Shown: piece after piece, positions 14,570-23,349 of the stretch
Layout of the letters: each line of letters opens with the position of its first letter
Position numbering within the stretch: position 1 is the first letter of the stretch
Assembly: GCA_038227875.1 (NCBI GenBank)
Contig: JBBRPR010000015.1
Location: 64,001 to 128,000 of the forward strand
Length of the DNA: 64,000 nucleotides
Direction: 5' to 3'
From: Planctomycetota bacterium
GTDB lineage: Bacteria > Planctomycetota > SZUA-567 > H5-PLA8
The notes under the pieces: generated by a model
Databases searched by the model: none
What the model was told of the DNA's origin: nothing
The model's input: the letters and a program-made list of their open reading frames with translations, nothing else
Program-made: the position numbers and the translations under genes

Positions 14570-15169
14570 ATGTCTTCTCCATCTGCTCCATCTTCCCCAC
14601 TCACTCGCGGCGCGATCATTCTCTGTGGTGGGGAATCGTCGCGCATGGGGTCGCCCAAGGCGCTCTTGCTGTGGCGCGGGGTGCCGATGATTTCACACGT
14701 CGTCGGCGTGGTCTCGACAGTGGTTCCCGAAATCGTCGTGGTGTCCAGCGCCGGGCTGAAACTTCCGGCGCTGCCGGCGCACGTTCGAGTCATCTACGAC
14801 AGTGAGCCGGGCCGCGGGCCGCTGGCTTCGTTGCGTGACGGACTGAACTCGATCCGCGCGGAACTGGCGTTTGCGACGAGCACCGACGCGCCGTTTTTGT
14901 CGGCGGCATTCATCGAAACGATGCTCTCCTTTGGCGGCGCGGCGGCACCGGAGATCGATGGATTTCTTCAGCCGCTGGCGGCGACGTATCCGAAGTCACT
15001 GAGCGGACTGGCGACATCGCTACTCGCCGAGCCACGCGCGGGGCTCACGGATCTGCTGAAGCGCGCGAACGCCCGGCGCGTGCAGGCGACGGAACTGCCG
15101 GATCTAAAGTCGCTCCAGACGTTTAACACGCCCGACGAATATCGCGCGGCGCTGGAAGCAGCGGGATGA
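14570..15169 (+). CDS. mobA: Molybdenum cofactor guanylyltransferase
   Basis: IILCGGESSRMGSPKAL, D...GRGPL, D.PF, QPL.A.Y, NTPDEY. Confidence 0.88.
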   Translation: MSSPSAPSSPLTRGAIILCGGESSRMGSPKALLLWRGVPMISHVVGVVSTVVPEIVVVSSAGLKLPALPAHVRVIYDSEPGRGPLASLRDGLNSIRAELAFATSTDAPFLSAAFIETMLSFGGAAAPEIDGFLQPLAATYPKSLSGLATSLLAEPRAGLTDLLKRANARRVQATELPDLKSLQTFNTPDEYRAALEAAG

Positions 15170-15240
15170 AGTGGACTTTTCTAAAATCTCTATTAAATTG
15201 CTGAATAGAGTTTGACAACCGCGGCGGGAATGGTATTAAT

Positions 15241-15265
15241 CTACCAACCCGATAGGGTAAGTAGT
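15241..15265 (+). promoter_or_regulatory. Candidate Rrf2 operator (two overlapping CKAY-N7-RTAG boxes), downstream of TTGACA at 15212
   Basis: ctac-caacccg-atag (15241-55) and cgat-agggtaa-gtag (15250-64); same layout at 15742-15766. Confidence 0.6.
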
Positions 15266-15267
15266 AT

Positions 15268-15723
15268 ATGTTGTCGAAGAAAACGCAGTACGCGCTAAGA
15301 GCGATGATCTCTCTGGCGCATGAACAGCCAGGCCAACCGATCATGATCGCGGCGCTGGCGGAGAAGGAACAGATTCCCAAGAAGTTTTTGGAGCTGATCC
15401 TGCTCGACCTGAAGAGTATCGGGGTGGTTCAAAGTAAGAAGGGCAAGCAGGGCGGGTACTACCTAAGTCGAAAGCCTGCTGAGATTAAGCTCGGCCATAT
15501 CATGCGGGGAATCGAAGGACCGCTGGCGCTGTTGCCCTGCGTCAGTTTGACGGCATACGAACGCTGTGAAGGGTGCAAGGACGAACGGACCTGCGGATTG
15601 AGGTTGGTCATGAAAGACGTGCGAGACCAGACCGCAAAGATCTTGGACAACACCAGCTTGGCGGACGTGATGGATCGAGTCGAAGCAGAGAAGTCAAAGC
15701 CGGACATGATGTTCCACATCTAA
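15268..15723 (+). CDS. Rrf2 family transcriptional regulator (four Cys, possible Fe-S)
   Basis: YALRAM..LA, IPKKFLELIL, SKKGKQGGYYL, CVSLTAYERCEGCKDERTC. Confidence 0.93.
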   Translation: MLSKKTQYALRAMISLAHEQPGQPIMIAALAEKEQIPKKFLELILLDLKSIGVVQSKKGKQGGYYLSRKPAEIKLGHIMRGIEGPLALLPCVSLTAYERCEGCKDERTCGLRLVMKDVRDQTAKILDNTSLADVMDRVEAEKSKPDMMFHI

Positions 15724-15741
15724 TTTTTTTAACACATAAGA

Positions 15742-15766
15742 CGACTAAAACTATAGGCATAATAGT
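15742..15766 (+). promoter_or_regulatory. Second candidate Rrf2 operator upstream of the YezD gene
   Basis: cgac-taaaact-atag (15742-56) and ctat-aggcata-atag (15751-65). Confidence 0.6.
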
Positions 15767-15780
15767 TAAGGATGAGACCC

Positions 15781-15969
15781 ATGAGTGCCACCAACGGACA
15801 TGCGATACACGAAAGCAAGAACGTCGACGAGCCGCTGGAGATCGTCCGTCGCGCGCTGCAAGGACTGCGCTTCGGATCCATCGAGATCATTGTTCACGAC
15901 TCGCGCGTCGTGCAGGTCGAGCGCAAAGAAAAGGTGCGCTTGGTCTCGGACGCGCCGGGACGGAGATAG
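15781..15969 (+). CDS. YezD/DUF2292 (OscA-like) small protein
   Basis: ALQGLRFGSIEIIVHDSRVVQVERKEKVRL signature; sulfate-uptake context. Confidence 0.88.
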   Translation: MSATNGHAIHESKNVDEPLEIVRRALQGLRFGSIEIIVHDSRVVQVERKEKVRLVSDAPGRR

Positions 15970-15984
15970 AAACGTGTTTTCCCC

Positions 15985-16002
15985 GGGGACCAATTGGTCC
16001 CC
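15985..16002. repeat. Perfect 18-bp palindrome centred on CCAATTGG
   Basis: ggggaccaattggtcccc. Confidence 0.85.
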
Positions 16003-16131
16003 AGGTTAAACAGCGCTGCCTCCCTTATTAGAGGCAGCTTGGAGCTGACTGCGATGACAGAAGCATTTAACGAATGGACTCAAGTAAGCCGACCCGTGCG
16101 CGGAGGTTTGCGAACAGAGGAACGCAAACGT

Positions 16132-16551
16132 ATGAGCCAGTCATCTGAAATCGTACGCGTGTTTGGAGCGCGTGTAAATCCGGCGGTCATGGTTGTGGAA
16201 GCGGACACCGACACTCCGCATTCCCTGACGCAGACCTTGAAGGCGCGCGGCTTCCGCGTGGCGCTGGCGCAATCGGTGCGCGAAGCCGAAGAGATGCTCC
16301 ACGATCTGCGCGACCTGCACCTGCCGGTGGACGGGTTGCTGGCCGACTACCGGCTGAGCGACGGATTCGGCTGCCGGATTCTGCGCCGCTTCCAGGACGA
16401 ATTTCCGAATCTGCCGGCCGCGGTGATGGTCGACGGTGAAGACGTCAGCATCGAATTGTGGGCGCGCTCGCGCAACATTCTGCTGCTGCGAAAACCGCTG
16501 GCACTGCCGGCGTTGAGTCCCTGGCTGGAGCAACTACCCGTTCCGGCCTGA
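16132..16551 (+). CDS. Stand-alone, atypical response-regulator receiver domain protein
   Basis: VMVVEAD, DGLLADYRLSDGFG, LLRKPL; lacks the beta4 Thr/Ser. Confidence 0.75.
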   Translation: MSQSSEIVRVFGARVNPAVMVVEADTDTPHSLTQTLKARGFRVALAQSVREAEEMLHDLRDLHLPVDGLLADYRLSDGFGCRILRRFQDEFPNLPAAVMVDGEDVSIELWARSRNILLLRKPLALPALSPWLEQLPVPA

Positions 16552-16646
16552 TGCAAAAACGCCGACCGCCAATGCACGGAGGCTCAAAACAAATTTTCCG
16601 AAGGCCACCAGACTGCTGGGCTTTCGCAGGGAGAGGGGAAACCGAC

Positions 16647-17627
16647 GTGGATGTAAGACGGACGTTAATGGCGCCAATCGTGTTGGCGCTCATCGCAAGC
16701 GCAACAACCGCATTTAGTCAGGAGGGCTTGGAAACACCGGAGGCAGGCCATCGAGCGATCGCGTTGACGCCGAGCGTCTCCGGCGCATCGTTGTTCCCGC
16801 TGAAGAATCCGGGCATCGTGACGCTGGGCACACTTTCGATTCAGAACCGCATCGACTTTGCCATCAGCGCGAGTTCGACGTCGAATGGCAATCTTGCCTA
16901 CTCGTGGAATTGGGGCGACGGCACCCCCAATGGCACGGGCCCTTTTCCAAATCACACGTACATCGTCGCCGGAATCTACAACGTCACAGTGACGACGACC
17001 GAGACAATTAAAGGCGCCGTGGCCAACACTCGCACCGACACGATTGTGACCACGGTGACCGACGCAGTGAAGGCCAACAAGCTTCAGACCAATGAGAACT
17101 GGGCGACGGCCAGCGGCAACGACTCGTTGCGCTTTCAGGGCACGCTTCACATTCCATCCGGGGCGAAACTTGCCGGACAGGTCGTGCAAATCAGCCTGGG
17201 AAATCTGAATCTGCCATTCAACCCTGCCAGCCTGGGCACCAACGACGGCGTAGTGTTCACCTTTACCCTCAACGACAAGGGTATCGCGACGTTCACCACA
17301 AACGCCAATGCCATCTACGATCCCACCACCGGTTCCAGCCCAACGACTGGCACCAGCGCGTTGAGTCAGGCCAGCGGCAAGGGCCAGTTCAAGCTCGCCT
17401 ACCGCGCTCGCGCCGGCGGTACGGCATTCGTTGACGCGCCGTTCCTGCTGACGCTCAAGGGCGGCACGTTTGCGAAGGCGCTGGCCAACGAAGGCGTCAC
17501 CAACGTCGACGCCAGCCGCGAAAACGTGCGCATCACGGCACGTGTCCTGGCTTTCAACATCCTGTACCAGTCCGGCATCAATTCTCTGTTCTCCTCCACG
17601 AAGGGTGGAAAGGGGAAGACGCGATGA
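16647..17627 (+). CDS. Secreted PKD-domain protein, Cys/Met-free after the signal peptide
   Basis: GTG 16647 after ggagagggg (alternative ATG 16668); signal peptide ending ATTAFS; YSWNWGDGT...HTY..AG.YNVTVT PKD motif. Confidence 0.85.
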   Translation: MDVRRTLMAPIVLALIASATTAFSQEGLETPEAGHRAIALTPSVSGASLFPLKNPGIVTLGTLSIQNRIDFAISASSTSNGNLAYSWNWGDGTPNGTGPFPNHTYIVAGIYNVTVTTTETIKGAVANTRTDTIVTTVTDAVKANKLQTNENWATASGNDSLRFQGTLHIPSGAKLAGQVVQISLGNLNLPFNPASLGTNDGVVFTFTLNDKGIATFTTNANAIYDPTTGSSPTTGTSALSQASGKGQFKLAYRARAGGTAFVDAPFLLTLKGGTFAKALANEGVTNVDASRENVRITARVLAFNILYQSGINSLFSSTKGGKGKTR

Positions 17628-17713
17628 CCAAATACATGCAGCGTTTTCACCCGCGCGCGGAATTGTTCCGCGTGTCTCCGCCGACGACAAAATTCCAATT
17701 CCTGGAGGGGAAG

Positions 17714-19304
17714 ATGAATTCACGACTGAAAGTTAATGCCTTGAGATTCCTGACTGCCATGCTGTTCGTGGCGACGATTGGCTCCGCCGTCCGCGCCGCC
17801 GATGGTGCGGCCGCGGACTTCGAATCGCTGAAAAAGGAGATCGAGGAGCTCAAGAAAGACAACGCCGACATCAAGAAAGCCAACTCCGATCTCGCTGCGA
17901 AAATTGCGCCGACGAAATCCAGCTCTGCCGAGAAGGCGCTCGATACCAAGTACGGTCCGAATGCCTCAGTGATCACGAAGACCGGCAAGCTGCGTATCGG
18001 CGGACTGATTCAGGTCTGGTACTACAATGCTCAGAAGGACAACAACGGGCTCTTCCAGGACGCGGCGGGCAATGGTGTTTTCGATACCAACGAAGCGTCC
18101 GACAACAGCAGTTTCCGCATCCGCCGCACAGAAATGCGGTTTACGATGGACCTGACGGACAACATCACGTCGGTGGTGATGATCGACCCGGCGCGTGAAG
18201 CGCAGAGTTTTCCCGGCGTGCCGGACAATCAGTTTACGCAGAGTATTTTCAAGCGCACCGTCAACGCCAATCTGGCCAACGTTCAGAGCGGCGCGGGCAG
18301 CGCTCCACGCTTGCTTCAAGACGCGTACACCAACTTCCACAATTTTGTGCCGCACCATGATTTTCAGATCGGACAGTTCAAGCCGTTCATCGGCGAAGAA
18401 GGCATTCGCGCGAGCGCCGAACTTGATTTCGCGGAACGTTCGATGGTGGGCCAGCTGGCCGACAACCGCGACCTGGGCGCGGTCGCACACGGCGAATGGT
18501 GGCACGCCGATGGCAAGGGCGGCGGGCAGGTACAGTATTGGATTGGACTCTTCGATGGCGCGGGAAATCTGTATCAGTCCGGCGGCCAGGCGCAAAATCG
18601 AGCCGACGACAACGATCAGAAAGACTTTAACTATCGCTTCCTTGTTCGCCCATTCTGGAAACGCGACGCGTGCGATCAGTGGTGGGGCAGTTCTGGAACT
18701 GGGCGTCTCCGGCGAATTCGGCAAACACGGCGAAGCCGGCGGTCCGGATCCGGTCGACGCACCCGTCAATGGTCTCAACCGTCGCCGCACGTGGGCCAGC
18801 CGCCAGGATGCGTGGGGTTATTACGCGCCAGCCGGCGCGGTCAGCGGGCTGTGGTTCCGCGGTGAGTGGGAATGGCAGAAGGACCGCAACGCTCCGTCAT
18901 CGGTGATCGATCTGCTCGGCCAGGCTAACGCGGGCGATGGCACGCTGCAGACGAATGGGAAACCGTTCGCGTCGCAGGGCTTCTACGTGTCGACGGGCTA
19001 CAAGCTTTCACAGAGCAAACTGTTCTCGTGCGAATGCCCGGCCTGGTACAAGAATCTGGAATTCCTCTTCCGCTACGAGCAGTACCAGAACGTGGAAATC
19101 GCAGACCCGGCGAATCCCAGCCGCACGAATGTCTTCGAAACCAAGCTCTACACGGGCGGCATCAATTACTACATCGAGGGCAACACAAAGATTCAGTTGA
19201 ACTACAGCTCGATCCGCAATCCCGATGGTGGTTCGAGCGCGCCGTACACGTTTCACAATCCGCGCAACAATTTGTTCCTCGTGAACTTTCAGGTGGCTTT
19301 CTAA
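17714..19304 (+). pseudogene. Outer-membrane porin (OprO/OprP-like, anion-selective), split by a single-base frameshift near 18691
   Basis: Signal peptide + coiled coil, FRIRR.E, LLQDAY, IGQFKPF, F.ERS, RDLG in frame 1; FRYE, YTGGINYY and C-terminal NFQVAF in the next frame; removing one T at 18691-92 gives WWGSLELGVSG. Confidence 0.8.
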
Positions 19305-19362
19305 GCCTCGACCGCCGGGATGGCTGATTCATCCGTGGCCTAGTTAAACCAAGGAGTGTCCC

Positions 19363-20370
19363 ATGAAATCCCTGTCTTTGTTTCTCGCTACGCTGGCCCT
19401 CGTCGCGCTCACGCCTGTTCTGACGCGCGCTGCGGAGGTCACGCTGCTCAACGTTTCTTACGATCCGACCCGCGAGTTGTATCAGGATTACAACGCGGCT
19501 TTTGGCGCGTACTGGAAGAAAAAGACTGGCGACACGGTTGCCGTCAAGCAGTCGCACGGTGGCTCGGCCAAACAGGCGCGGTCGGTGATCGACGGCTTGG
19601 AAGCCGATGTCGTCACGCTGGGTTTGGCGTACGACATTGATGTCATCGCCGAAAAAGCGCAGTTGCTGCCGGTCGACTGGCAGAAGCGCAATCCCAACAA
19701 CAGTTCGCCGTACACCTCGACCATCGTGTTCCTGGTGCGCAAAGGCAATCCCAAGCAGATCAAGGATTGGGATGACCTGGTCAAGCCGGGGATTGAAGTG
19801 ATCACGCCGAATCCGAAGACGTCCGGCGGCGCGCGTTGGAACTATCTCGCCGCGTGGGGCTTCGCAGTCAAAAAGCAGGGCGCAGATGATGCGAAGGCGA
19901 AGGATTTTGTCACCGCGCTCTATAAAAACGTGCCGGTGCTCGACTCCGGCGCGCGCGGTTCGACGACGACGTTCACCGAACGCGGCATCGGCGACGTGCT
20001 GATCGCGTGGGAGAACGAGGCGTATCTGGCGCTGAAGGAACTGGGCAAGGACAAGGTTGAGATCGTCATCCCCAGCATCAGTATTCTCGCCGAACCTCCG
20101 GTGAGCGTGGTCGACAAGATCGCTCAGAAGAAGGGCACCGAAGCGGTCGCCAAGGCCTATGTCGAATACCTCTATAGTGAAGAAGGCCAGGAGATCGCCG
20201 CGCGCAATTTCTATCGTCCGCGCAACGAAGGCATCGCCTCGAAGCATGCCGATCAGTTCGCGAAACTGACGTTGTTCACGATCGACGATCTCTTCGGCGG
20301 TTGGCAGAAAGCGCAGAAGACGCACTTCGCCGATGGTGGACTGTTCGACCAGATCTATCAGCCAAAATAG
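19363..20370 (+). CDS. sbp: Sulfate ABC transporter substrate-binding protein
   Basis: [52 protein letters not shown]. Confidence 0.96.
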
Positions 20371-20400
20371 GAGCAAAAGGACCGCGGAGGTTTCTCGGTT

Positions 20401-20443
20401 TTGAGCCTCGAGTTTTGACTGCGCAAGCAAAACGCGAAGCTCA
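20401..20443 (+). other. Stem-loop after sbp (possible mRNA stabiliser)
   Basis: ttgagc.tcg.gttttg ... caaaac.cga.gctcaa. Confidence 0.5.
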
Positions 20444-20541
20444 AGATACTCCTCGCCTCCGCGGCCCTGCCCGTCTTAAGTGCGATGTTTTTCGTGGCAT
20501 AAAAAGATCCATCAGACCGCACCCGCGGATGAGGCAAGGAC

Positions 20542-21387
20542 ATGAAACTGAAAGACCGCAGCATTCTTCCCGGTTTTCGTTGGACGTTGGCGTTCACGTT
20601 GTTTTATCTCTCGCTGATCGTCCTGATTCCGCTCTCCGCCACGTTTTTGAAGTCCATGACCGGCACGTGGGCGCATTTCTGGGACGCCATTTCCAACGCG
20701 CGCGTTGTGGCCTCCTTCAAAATCAGTTTCATCTGCTCGTTCGCTGCGGCGATCATTAATCTGATCTTCGGACTGCTCGTAGCGTGGGTGCTCGTCCGCT
20801 ACAAATTTCCCGGCCGCGCGATCGCCGATGCGATCATCGATCTGCCATTCGCGCTGCCCACCGCGGTGGCCGGCATCGCGCTGGTCACGCTCTACGCGCC
20901 GAAAGGTTTGATCGGCAGCCGATTGCAACCGCTGCTCACGCCGTTGGGCTGGAAGCTCGCCTACTCGCCCATCGGGATCACGCTGGCGCTCGTCTTCATC
21001 GGTCTTCCATTCGTGGTCCGCACAGTCCAACCGGTGCTGCAGGATCTCGATCTGGAAGTGGAGGAAGCCGCATCCAGTCTCGGCGCGACGCGCTGGCAGA
21101 CATTCTGGCGCGTAATCATTCCGTCGCTGACGCCTGCGCTGCTGACGGGCTTCGCGCTCTCGTTTGCCCGGTCGCTGGGTGAGTACGGTTCGGTCGTCTT
21201 CATCTCCGGCAACATGCCGATGAAGACCGAAATCGTCCCGCTGATCATCATCACCAAGCTGGAGGAATACGATTACACCGGCGCGACAGCGATCGCCGTG
21301 GTGATGCTCTTGATTTCATTCGTGCTGCTCCTGCTGATCAATTATTTGCAGGCTTGGAGCGGCCGCCACTTAAGCGCGAAGAACTAG
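20542..21387 (+). CDS. cysT: Sulfate ABC transporter permease CysT
   Basis: DLPFALPTAVAG, LPFVVRTVQP, EEAA.SLGA, RSLGEYGSV. Confidence 0.95.
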   Translation: MKLKDRSILPGFRWTLAFTLFYLSLIVLIPLSATFLKSMTGTWAHFWDAISNARVVASFKISFICSFAAAIINLIFGLLVAWVLVRYKFPGRAIADAIIDLPFALPTAVAGIALVTLYAPKGLIGSRLQPLLTPLGWKLAYSPIGITLALVFIGLPFVVRTVQPVLQDLDLEVEEAASSLGATRWQTFWRVIIPSLTPALLTGFALSFARSLGEYGSVVFISGNMPMKTEIVPLIIITKLEEYDYTGATAIAVVMLLISFVLLLLINYLQAWSGRHLSAKN

Positions 21388-21397
21388 GAGCCCAATC

Positions 21398-22264
21398 ATG
21401 CACGGAGGTTCACTCACTTCGGCGGCGCTGGGCTCAGGCAAGCGTCGTACCACGACTGAAAGCGGCCCGATCAAATGGCTGCTGATCACCATCGCCATGC
21501 TGTTCTTGTTAATCATTCTGGTGCTGCCCATCGGCATCGTCTTCAGCGAAGCGCTGGCGAAAGGATTTTCCACTTACACCAAGGCGTTGCAGGACGCAGA
21601 CACGTGGTCGTCGATCCGTCTGACGTTGATCGCGGCGGGCATCGCCGTTCCGCTGAACCTGGTCTTCGGCGTCGCGGCGGCATGGGCGATCGCCAAGTTC
21701 AATTTCTTCGGCAAGAATTTTCTGCTGACGCTGATCGATCTTCCGTTCTCCGTCTCCCCGGTGATCTCCGGACTGATCTACGTGCTGATGTTCGGCCTGC
21801 AAGGCTGGATGGGCGGTTGGCTGCGCGATCACGATTTGAAGATCATTTTCGCGGTGCCGGGCATCGTGCTGGCCACGATCTTCGTCACGTTTCCCTTCGT
21901 GGCGCGCGAGCTGATTCCGCTGATGGAAGCGCAGGGCAAGGAGGAAGAGGAAGCGGCGATCGTGCTCGGCGCGAATGGCTGGCAGACGTTTTTTCGCGTG
22001 ACGCTGCCGAACATCAAATGGGGGCTGCTCTATGGCGTGATCCTTTGCAATGCCCGCGCGATGGGTGAATTCGGCGCGGTGTCGGTGGTCTCCGGCCACA
22101 TCCGCGGGCTCACCAACACGATGCCGTTGCATATTGAAATTCTTTACAACGAATACAATTTCGCCGCCGCGTTCGCTGTCGCGTCGCTGCTGGCATTGCT
22201 GGCTGTCGTAACCTTGATCTTGAAGAAAATCGTCGAGTGGCGCGCTGGAGAGAGCGAACAATGA
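21398..22264 (+). CDS. cysW: Sulfate ABC transporter permease CysW
   Basis: [37 protein letters not shown]. Confidence 0.95.
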
Positions 22265-23349
22265 GTATCGAAGTCGCAAACATTACCAAGACGTTTGGCG
22301 CGTTCTCAGCGCTCAACAATGTCAGCCTGACCGTGCCAACCGGAGAGCTCGTCGCGCTGCTCGGTCCGTCGGGCTCCGGCAAGACGACGTTGCTGCGCAT
22401 CATCGCGGGGTTGGAACATCAGGACGCTGGCTCCGTCAATTTTTACGGCGAAGATACGTCCAACGTTCACGTGCGCGACCGCAATGTCGGCTTTGTCTTT
22501 CAACATTACGCGCTCTTCCGCCATATGAGCGTCTTTGAGAACATCGCTTTCGGTCTGCGGGTCCGGCCCCGCGACCGGCGACCGTCGGAGGCGGAAATTC
22601 AGGAGCGGGTGATGAAGCTCCTGCGGCTGGTCCAACTTGAAAATCTCGCGCAGCGCTATCCTTCGCAGCTCTCCGGCGGGCAGCGGCAGCGCGTAGCGCT
22701 CGCCCGGGCACTGGCCGTCGAGCCGAAAGTGCTGCTGCTCGACGAACCCTTCGGCGCGCTCGACGCAAAAGTGCGCAAGGAACTGCGCACCTGGCTGCGC
22801 CGGTTGCATGATGAGATCAGCGTCACCAGCGTGTTCGTCACGCACGATCAGGAAGAAGCTCTCGAAGTTTCCGACCGTGTCGTGGTAATGAACGCGGGAA
22901 AAATCGAGCAGGCTGGAACGCCGGAGGAGGTCTACACGCATCCGGCGACGCCGTTCGTCTACAACTTCCTCGGCAATGTGAATATTTTTCACGGCCGCGT
23001 CGCCGACGGGAAAGTTCAGATCGGCGAAATGTCCGTGCCGCTGACGTCCAGTGCGCACGGCGCGCTGCAGAATGGCAACAGCGGGGAGGACAAAGCCGCG
23101 GTCTTTATCCGGCCTCATCTGCTGGACCTGACGCGCGTGCCTGACGGCAAGACCAACTTCAAGGCGACGGTTTCGCACATCAACCCCGCCGGGCCGCTGG
23201 TCCGCGTGGAGTTGACCAGCGATGGCAAGGATTCGATTCTCGTCGAGCTGCCGCAGGACCGGTACCGCGAATTGAGCGTCAAAAAGGGCGACGAAATCTA
23301 CGTGCGGCCCAAGGAGATGAAAGTCTTCTCGGAGGATTATTCGATTTAG
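22261..23349 (+). CDS. cysA: Sulfate ABC transporter ATPase CysA
   Basis: [34 protein letters not shown]-terminal TOBE. Confidence 0.95.

Follow-up and report, generated by a model that had tools for sequence, protein, structure and literature searches.

Diverged copies of a yezD-linked RNA hairpin family, a probable ON switch, in a planctomycete sulfate-uptake operon

The stretch of DNA considered here, referred to as the window, comprises 64,000 nucleotides of a Planctomycetota genome (assembly GCA_038227875.1, contig JBBRPR010000015.1, positions 64,001 to 128,000 of the forward strand) and contains a sulfate-uptake operon whose intercistronic spacers harbour a series of short RNA hairpins, potentially diverged members of a conserved family attached to the small gene yezD. 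On the basis of Pfam assignments, the operon is a single co-directional row on the plus strand, which reads Rrf2, YezD (DUF2292), receiver, PKD, porin, Sbp, CysT, CysW and CysA (Table 1). The YezD protein scores 59.2 bits against the Pfam DUF2292 model, which has a cut-off of 22, and 55 bits against the NCBIfam model sulfur_OscA (NF033785), below the curated cut-off of 85; because of the latter score it is regarded as a relative of OscA and not as its equivalog. The Rrf2-family regulator matches NCBIfam CymR at 79.6 bits, under the cut-off of 195.

All five hairpins that had been proposed in a preliminary description of this DNA are present on the sense strand of the operon spacers. Copies 1 to 4 combine three to five outer pairs with an internal loop in which GA faces A, while hairpin B, originally listed as a degenerate copy, carries CA and lacks the opposing A. 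Such a loop, with two letters opposite one (GA against A), differs from that of a kink-turn, which is made of a three-letter bulge and tandem sheared G-A pairs. Folding of the yezD-receiver spacer gives a z-score of -3.25, with copy 1 in the minimum-energy structure, and folding of the receiver-PKD spacer (16545-16655) gives +0.46. The region 20365-20550, which includes the sbp-cysT spacer, folds at -73 kcal/mol (z -4.9, with none of 200 shuffles as stable), a value owed mostly to a long hairpin unrelated to the GA/A family. Across 15100-20700, a scan for promoters and terminators returned counts at shuffle level and predicted no intrinsic terminator in the spacers. A comparison with Rfam, which had also been proposed, has now been run: Rfam 15 holds no family that matches the window hairpins at its gathering score or anything in 15600-20700 at E<=10, and it gives no match in ten loci with the canonical hairpin described below at E<=1, nor in L033:6100-6300 at E<=10.

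Table 1. Genes, hairpins and other structures of the sulfate-uptake operon, in window coordinates
Feature	Position	Strand	Evidence and remarks
Rrf2-family (CymR/IscR-like) transcription regulator, first in cluster	15268..15723	+	Pfam Rrf2 E 2.7e-36; NCBIfam rrf2_super
yezD (DUF2292/OscA-like), 62 aa	15781..15969	+	Pfam PF10055 E 2.9e-16; second in-frame ATG at 15772
18-nt perfect palindrome GGGGACCAATTGGTCCCC (15985-16002) and 8-bp stem (16015-16038)	15985..16038	+	Directly after yezD stop; minimum-energy fold
Copy 1: GCU-GA-CUG-cgauga-CAG-A-AGC	16044..16064	+	In minimum-energy fold; invariant in L017
Copy 2: AAGCC-GA-CC-cgugcgc-GG-A-GGUUU	16086..16109	+	Before receiver gene; ends 22 nt ahead of ATG
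Helix GUUUGCG/CGCAAAC, 7 bp, GAGGAA Shine-Dalgarno in loop	16106..16129	+	Centroid fold; ends 2 nt before ATG 16132
Receiver-domain-only protein, 139 aa	16132..16551	+	Pfam Response_reg 28.3 bits, slightly below cut-off 30.2
Copy 3 (hairpin A): GCC-GA-CCG-ccaaugca-CGG-A-GGC	16561..16583	+	Type II hairpin shape
Hairpin B: GGC-CA-CCAG-acug-CUGG-GCU	16603..16622	+	24 nt ahead of PKD GTG
PKD-domain secreted protein	16647..17627	+	Pfam PKD_4 E 3.2e-12; N terminus signal-peptide-like (by reading); GTG start
Phosphate-selective-type porin (Porin_O_P), two reading frames	17714..19304	+	Pfam Porin_O_P on 17624-18865 and 18195-19304
Sulfate-binding protein (Sbp/CysP type)	19363..20370	+	Pfam SBP_bac_11 E 4.4e-38; relatives' Sbp 67-70% identical
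Long imperfect hairpin (~95 nt) after sbp, outside GA/A family	20379..20472	+	Fold of surrounding region
Copy 4: UCA-GA-CCGC-accc-GCGG-A-UGA	20512..20532	+	In minimum-energy fold; ends 2 nt before cysT Shine-Dalgarno
cysT, cysW, cysA sulfate ABC transporter	20542..23349	+	Pfam BPD_transp_1 x2; ABC_tran, CysA_C_terminal and TOBE

The family to which these hairpins were compared is a conserved RNA structure that is so far undescribed; no description of it is found in the literature on DUF2292, YezD, OscA and sulfate riboswitch candidates, although motifs placed only in supplements could escape such a search. Its canonical form (type I) lies within 260 nt after yezD in 22 of 35 loci taken from a metagenome scan seeded with YezD, which range from 44 to 64% G+C (E<=3.4e-5 with R1, a type I covariance model of 85 sequences drawn only from lineages other than that of the window). 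A scan of genome_contigs that was independent of yezD, employing a 20-letter pattern of the hairpin alone, returned at least 121 stretches, compared with about 17 expected by chance (an arithmetical estimate), and among the matches listed are Verrucomicrobia, Nitrospira, Cellvibrio, Methylococcaceae, Lachnospiraceae, Butyrivibrio, Ruminococcus, Sporosarcina, Chloroflexia, Planctomycetia, Kiritimatiellia, Deltaproteobacteria, Actinomycetota and others. The canonical hairpin is present in at least ten phyla, where it precedes porin, sulfate-binding, sulfonate-binding and cysteine-pathway genes. In nearly all of 80 pattern-seeded loci it is intergenic and oriented with the gene that follows, whose start lies a median of 26 nt away. 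Outer-membrane channels account for 28 of the 72 downstream open reading frames tested (15 Porin_O_P, 7 Porin_4/Porin_1, 3 Alginate_exp and 3 DUF3034); a further 8 are sulfate-binding proteins (SBP_bac_11) and 2 are SsuA-like (NMT1), there is one each of PAPS reductase, Cys_Met_Meta_PP and PALP, and 23 belong to no Pfam family.

The canonical design, which is nearly invariant, consists of an outer stem, GA, CCGG, an A-Y-N-A loop, CCGG, A and the returning strand of the outer stem. Covariation was assessed in an alignment of 85 distinct sequences, at the two outer-stem pairs that the search pattern had not fixed. Pair 7-29 is found as AU (34), GU (18), GC (9) and CG (8), and pair 6-30 as GC (27), AU (11) and UA (5); the outer-stem covariation score was reached by none of 500 shuffles, and the outer stem is 92.7% paired, compared with 22-55% in slid-register controls. 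The four inner CCGG/CCGG pairs, each kept in 83-85 of the 85 sequences, are by themselves uninformative on pairing because they are invariant save for two U-G variants. At the same inner position, double changes that preserve pairing give CCAG/CUGG in the window's family and UCAG/CUGA in certain type II hairpins of Nitrospira. No variation is found at A12, A17 and A25, and A20 is conserved to at least 90%. Read along either strand, the core gives ACCGGA and is therefore a duplex of two-fold symmetry that carries a single additional bulged G, such that the canonical hairpin is composed of a covarying outer stem of 4-5 bp, a bulged G, a nearly two-fold symmetric core and two free loop letters. 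The covariation claimed earlier for the window had been seen between paralogous copies and not between homologous sites; true covariation is a property of the wider family. Two of the loci that carry this hairpin have further features. The Cellvibrio fibrivorans record L099 contains, on its minus strand (755-774 and 2501-2520), two yezD-hairpin-porin units 1.7 kb apart, each with its own yezD. The metagenome contig L046, which has the arrangement Rrf2-yezD-hairpin-sbp, also shows a sub-threshold match to the c-di-GMP-I-GGC riboswitch at 1095-1251 of the minus strand (56.9 bits against a gathering score of 59, E 8e-11).

A second and looser form (type II), with the shape GCC-GN-(C/U)C(A/G)G-NNNN-...-A-GGC, stands 21-44 nt upstream of the canonical hairpin in 21 of 97 distinct instances and, by the same test, downstream of it in none. 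Across 15 Nitrospira-type leaders this upstream hairpin contains compensatory CG/UA and GC/CG pairs, as aligned by RNAalifold.

The tie between these hairpins and YezD, which had been suspected from the window, is upheld by both position and co-occurrence across phyla. Among the 80 pattern-seeded instances, 54 have a yezD on the same strand that ends no more than 150 nt upstream (median gap 56 nt), 6 have it elsewhere in the 5-kb locus and in 20 it was not seen; the figure of 54 is a lower bound, as the YezD hidden Markov model missed at least the adjacent yezD of L117. Nineteen of the 20 genomes without yezD in the hairpin locus were tested for DUF2292, and 16 of these possess a DUF2292 gene elsewhere, compared with a background of 5 of 151 genomes in a sample of the phylum and 1 of 14 control genomes. 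A set of low-GC metagenome contigs (L034-L040, L047 and L048) is arranged differently, with yezD followed directly by an Rrf2 gene, and no canonical hairpin was detected in these, either in the first 260 nt after yezD or by R1; they represent either a yezD subgroup that lacks the hairpin RNA or one with an undetected variant. The AlphaFold model of YezD comprises a helix (13-26) and a beta hairpin (32-50), with a mean predicted local distance difference test score of 79 and a core above 90. The N-domain of AbrB and the dimerisation domain of the coronavirus N protein were considered as fold neighbours of YezD and rejected, their E-values (~1-4) being too weak.

The 3' arm of the hairpin is shared with helices that would silence the following gene. 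In nine of ten Firmicutes-/Chloroflexi-type loci (L054, L058, L059, L065, L066, L075, L105, L109 and L115, with L088 as the exception), this arm also serves as the 5' arm of an intrinsic terminator. For the 15 leaders of Nitrospira type, RNAalifold pairs the arm, CCGGAAGUUC, with codons 2-5 in a long sequestering helix that encloses the Shine-Dalgarno sequence and AUG, the type II hairpin standing upstream of it. Similarly, a GUGAUAUG/CAUGUCAU helix over the AUG of Cellvibrio-type loci, identified by eye, begins within the 3' arm, and in G010, a relative of the source genome, the arm of hairpin B belongs, by reading, to a GGUUCCC/GGGAAUC helix over the porin Shine-Dalgarno sequence. The hairpin and the OFF helix are mutually exclusive and therefore a stabiliser of the hairpin would turn the gene on; judged from these sequences, the hairpin is probably an ON switch for downstream sulfur-uptake genes. 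A role as antiterminator or translational activator, suggested in the preliminary description, thus agrees with the wider family, in which the 3' arm is shared with a terminator or with a helix over the start site, but its antiterminator half finds no support in the window, where only translational control is plausible because no intrinsic terminator is predicted in the spacers. The GUUUGCG/CGCAAAC helix ahead of the receiver gene overlaps the 3' arm of copy 2 by 4 nt (16106-16109).

Relatives of the source genome (G000) bear directly on the window copies. YezD is found in 4 of 41 related genomes, with G000 included. Three relatives, G010, G012 and G004, share the order (Rrf2)-yezD-(receiver)-porin-sbp-cysTWA and carry two tandem hairpins ahead of the porin gene, at the sites of hairpins A and B of the window. 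In their hairpin A the outer stem encloses, in this order, two letters, CCGG, a loop, CCGG and one further letter, and their hairpin B reads GCC-(G/C)A-CCAG-NNNN-CUGG-A-GGU, 25-27 nt ahead of the porin start. G012 has a further copy in the yezD-receiver spacer and, at the site of copy 4 ahead of cysT, a strict UCC-GA-CGCG-aaaa-CGCG-A-GGA, where G004 has a hairpin that lacks GA/A. The metagenome contig L017, with 95% protein identity, preserves every stem in copies 1, 2, A and B, with changes confined to loops, to the bulge of B or to the replacement of G-U by G-C: the stems of copy 2 are invariant and its loop altered, hairpin A changes only in loop letters, and in hairpin B an outer-stem G-U becomes G-C. 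The first 80 nt after yezD are far more diverged between the window and L017 than are the hairpin stems.

Broader searches of the class and phylum were less productive. The pattern CCSACCAGNNNNCTGGAG was matched nine times in 62 genomes of the class, against two matches of a control, with only three at yezD loci; the six matches elsewhere have no operon protein nearby, lie in coding-like DNA and were taken as chance. The exact pattern TGACCGGAYNACCGGARG occurs in 2 of 401 genomes of the phylum, so the canonical form is rare there, which is no argument against the hairpin family. R1 gave no match across 151 phylum genomes, a result that is uninformative, as only 45 of thousands of candidates were scored.

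Covariance models built without the window's own family place their best window matches on two of the named copies. With R1 the top match on either strand is 16081-16115, which is copy 2 (14.2 bits, E 0.098, against 27-48 bits for family members), and with R2, a type II model of 18 sequences from which the window's family was excluded, it is 16556-16588, which is copy 3 (15.6 bits, E 0.015), both E-values resting on a rough calibration. Because the operon spacers make up only 0.5% of the positions searched, two top matches on named copies are unlikely by chance. R2 ranks copy 4 sixth in the window (9.8 bits, E 1.5) and copy 2 37th; it scores the homologues of hairpin A in G010, G012 and L017 at 12-20 bits and those of hairpin B at 26.4 (G010), 18.4 (G012) and 10.9 bits (G004), with R1 giving 21.5 bits on the G010 hairpin B. 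Copy 3 also shows the type II features of a GCC/GGC outer stem, a G-N/A internal loop and a C-rich 5' inner arm, with an inner stem of 3 pairs and a loop of 8 letters, compared with 4 and 4 in the type II seeds. The gap between A and B (19 nt) and that between copies 1 and 2 (21 nt), set beside 21-44 nt in the type II seeds, fit the tandem layout, in which copy 1 is a possible upstream partner of copy 2. The copies stand after yezD on the sense strand, copy 2 22 nt and hairpin B 24 nt before the next start, against the family median of 26. On the best reading of these sequences, copies 2, A (copy 3) and B are diverged family members, with B assigned by positional homology; the membership of copies 1 and 4 is uncertain.

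Within the genome itself, the GA/A motif was counted in a strict form (three Watson-Crick pairs, GA, at least three pairs, a loop of 3-9, A and three pairs) and in a loose form that permits G-U and an inner stem of at least two. The strict form occurs five times on the plus strand of the 64-kb window and twice on the minus strand; three of the five plus-strand matches fall within the 631 nt of operon spacers, with none antisense there, and the 64 possible NN/N internal loops average 0.06 strict matches in these spacers. Across the 9.3-Mb assembly there are 626 strict matches, which is at chance level, and same-strand clusters of at least three within 4.6 kb number five where about seven are expected (Poisson arithmetic), the other four clusters all lying within long open frames. 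The concern that the motif might be equally frequent in other regions or on the antisense strand is therefore answered in part: the spacers hold three sense matches against no antisense match, but the pattern itself is not enriched genome-wide and only its spacer placement is unusual. In view of the 626 matches and of five clusters against about seven expected, the in-genome statistics are only suggestive; it is the comparative evidence from other genomes that raises copies 2, 3 and B above chance. Copies 1 and 4, whose status is uncertain, are less well supported than these three.

The explanation favoured here, to which an even chance is assigned, is that yezD (DUF2292/OscA) genes are accompanied by a conserved family of cis-regulatory RNA hairpins, of which the window copies are diverged members, and that the hairpin is an ON switch stabilised by YezD. 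Sulfur starvation would induce YezD, the product of the gene directly upstream in the same transcript, and YezD would be the most likely stabiliser of the hairpin, the case for YezD as its binder being about evenly balanced. The stabilised hairpin would block the competing helix, namely the terminator in Firmicutes-/Chloroflexi-type loci and the helix over the ribosome-binding site and start codon in Gram-negative ones, and the downstream gene for sulfur uptake or assimilation would then be expressed, making the whole a feed-forward ON switch. In the window the putative action would be on translation, with copies 1 and 2 controlling the receiver gene, A and B the PKD-porin-sbp genes and copy 4 possibly cysT. 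A more far-reaching proposal, which falls a little short of an even chance, is that YezD/OscA constitutes a new family of small RNA-binding regulators, a dimer of which reads the symmetric ACCGGA duplex, with its bulged G, after its own gene and thereby frees the sulfur-uptake genes from a terminator or start-site helix, a protein-RNA sulfur-starvation switch common to more than ten phyla, with the window containing a diverged tandem version that acts on translation.

Precedents exist for such a design. Ribonucleic antiterminator (RAT) hairpins are short, imperfect RNA hairpins with internal loops that overlap the 5' arm of a terminator and are highly conserved rather than covarying, and the small dimeric RNA-binding domain (~55 aa) of BglG, SacY and LicT stabilises them, which results in read-through. 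The YezD-linked hairpin resembles these in being short, conserved and overlapping with a terminator 5' arm, with the role of the protein putative by analogy. It differs in that there is no sequence relation, YezD matching only DUF2292 in Pfam and no phosphotransferase system (PTS) regulation domains, and in that the Gram-negative YezD-linked loci target a start-site helix in place of a terminator. CsrA/RsmA is likewise a small, beta-rich dimer, which reads GGA hairpins near the Shine-Dalgarno sequence, with GGA in the loop, and usually represses. The 3' arm of the YezD-linked hairpin reads CCGGA(A/G)G; however, its GGA is located in the stem and internal loop, its design predicts activation and YezD lies outside the CsrA family in Pfam. 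Within the DUF2292 family, a likeness is provided by OscA of Pseudomonas, whose gene immediately precedes sbp and the genes of the sulfate ABC transporter; both sulfur starvation and chromate induce OscA. In Pseudomonas corrugata, OscA is described as a small protein encoded with sbp, needed for chromate resistance and induced with sulfur starvation (PMC2996968, citing Viti 2009); the passages on OscA in this literature propose no RNA role for it.

Several points weigh against the proposed YezD-stabilised switch and its extension to the window. With respect to the protein, no hairpin lies near yezD in 12 of the 35 yezD-seeded loci, nor near several second copies of the gene; no DUF2292 was found in 3 of the 19 tested hairpin genomes; and membership of a common regulon, instead of binding, could account for the co-occurrence. 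No solved structure in the PDB is a sequence relative of YezD at E<=1, and a Foldseek search of the PDB returned nothing at E<=0.001 (best E 0.97) and no RNA-binding relative. With respect to the helices, at least 5 of 10 arm letters are paired in 75 of 78 loci, a figure that has no shuffle control, and it is only the terminator and Nitrospira helices that were read in detail.

Some of these points suit the main rival, which is an unlikely one nevertheless: a small riboswitch for a metabolite that signals sulfur status (O-acetylserine, N-acetylserine, sulfate, sulfite or adenosine 5'-phosphosulfate), with yezD merely the first gene of the regulated operons. The layout, a small conserved hairpin with its 3' arm inside a terminator or start-site sequestor, would fit a riboswitch, as would the three hairpin genomes in which no DUF2292 was found and the five instances (L058, L060, L070, L075 and L105) that have a sulfur context but lack a yezD within 2.5 kb. 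Tiny ON-switch hairpins that share their 3' side with the expression platform and are sometimes tandem are known from the hydroxymethylpyrimidine pyrophosphate (HMP-PP; thiS motif) and guanidine-II (mini-ykkC) riboswitches, and the 21 tandem cases out of 97 recall the two-hairpin design of guanidine-II. The YezD-linked family shares with both the small size, the shared 3' side, the ON design and the tandem hairpins, but it has no Rfam match, its conserved letters and loops differ, and riboswitches are not characterised by linkage to a single small protein family. The tie to YezD extends to the genomes without yezD in the locus, where 16 of 19 still encode DUF2292 against a background of about 3%. 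In addition, the invariant, non-covarying CCGG pairs and the dyad-symmetric core fit a dimeric protein better than a ligand pocket, and about 15 conserved letters would be very small for a selective aptamer. Other candidate cis-regulatory RNAs precede sulfate transporter-type genes, including the sul1 motif, located upstream of sulfate transporters (PMC5737381), and the dauA motif, a three-stem junction of Streptomyces found upstream of dauA, which encodes a STAS-domain protein (PMC11109978). As far as these two reports describe them, both motifs stand upstream of other genes than does the YezD-linked hairpin, at which Rfam 15 finds no match.

The remaining points concern the window copies, which may be decaying or may be read differently from canonical ones. 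None carries the invariant CCGG stem, their inner stems being CUG/CAG, CC/GG, CCG/CGG, CCGC/GCGG and CCAG/CUGG, and none of their loops (cgauga, cgugcgc, ccaaugca, accc and acug) is AYNA. Their model scores reach only 14-16 bits, copies 1 and B are matched by neither model, and copy 1 is absent from the R1 and R2 matches at E<=10. No canonical copy was found in G000 by R1, though its YezD is canonical in sequence; the R1 matches in this genome are local and confined to the core, at E>=1.9, and five of six lie within long open frames. It would be conceivable, if improbable, that the window hairpins are ordinary intercistronic mRNA hairpins involved in processing, stability or translation coupling, with no specific partner and a likeness to the family that arose by chance or decay. 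Strong unrelated hairpins also occupy these spacers, the loose GA/A form has four spacer matches and a GC/C control has four as well, and the chance-level frequency of the strict form, the missing canonical stem and loop, the weak model E-values and the z-score of the receiver-PKD spacer can all be read in this sense. Against it stand the top matches of two independent models exactly at copies 2 and 3, the retention of A and B at equivalent sites in L017 and three relatives, where only loops change or G-U becomes G-C, and the three strict matches in the spacers against none antisense. It is very improbable that the conserved letters form a DNA operator, bound for instance by the Rrf2/CymR-like regulator encoded nearby, since, even though an Rrf2 gene adjoins yezD here and in many loci and the core contains a CCGG palindrome and the direct repeat ACCGGA-NN-ACCGGA, the site lies inside the operon after yezD and in nearly all 80 loci has the orientation of the next gene, its outer stem covaries to preserve pairing with the 2-by-1 asymmetry kept on one strand, and its 3' arm is built into terminators and start-site helices.

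DUF2292/YezD/OscA proteins are widespread and matter for sulfur starvation and chromate resistance, and a conserved RNA partner would provide them with a testable function. If the proposed YezD-stabilised switch is correct, it would add a new post-transcriptional layer to the control of sulfate and sulfonate uptake, beside the DNA-binding regulators CysB, CymR and Rrf2. Should no protein be needed, the hairpin would rank among the smallest riboswitch candidates and would be the first tied to inorganic sulfur supply. The canonical hairpin is short, nearly invariant and easily tested by experiment.

A number of minor features were noted in the source genome. An intergenic run of CCGGAC(U/G)A-like repeats at about 3200-3290 of contig C35 of G000 (L188, minus strand) includes a core-only canonical match (17.1 bits, E 1.9); it adjoins the start of a divergent gene and could be a different repeat or an operator array. 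The two hairpins directly after yezD (15985-16038) are outside the GA/A family and neither is followed by a T run, no terminator being called there; this segment has diverged strongly from the 95% relative L017 with its pairing retained. The long hairpin at 20379-20472 resembles stem-loops found between the cistrons of ABC operons, which fix how much binding protein is made relative to permease. The two Porin_O_P frames overlap and each matches part of the Pfam model, owing either to a frameshift or to an assembly error within 18195-18865. Finally, the receiver-domain-only gene sits between yezD and the transport genes in the window and also in L006 (~2131-2481). A homologue occupies the equivalent site in G012 and L017, and in the insertion common to these two and the window the receiver gene is preceded by a hairpin copy of its own.

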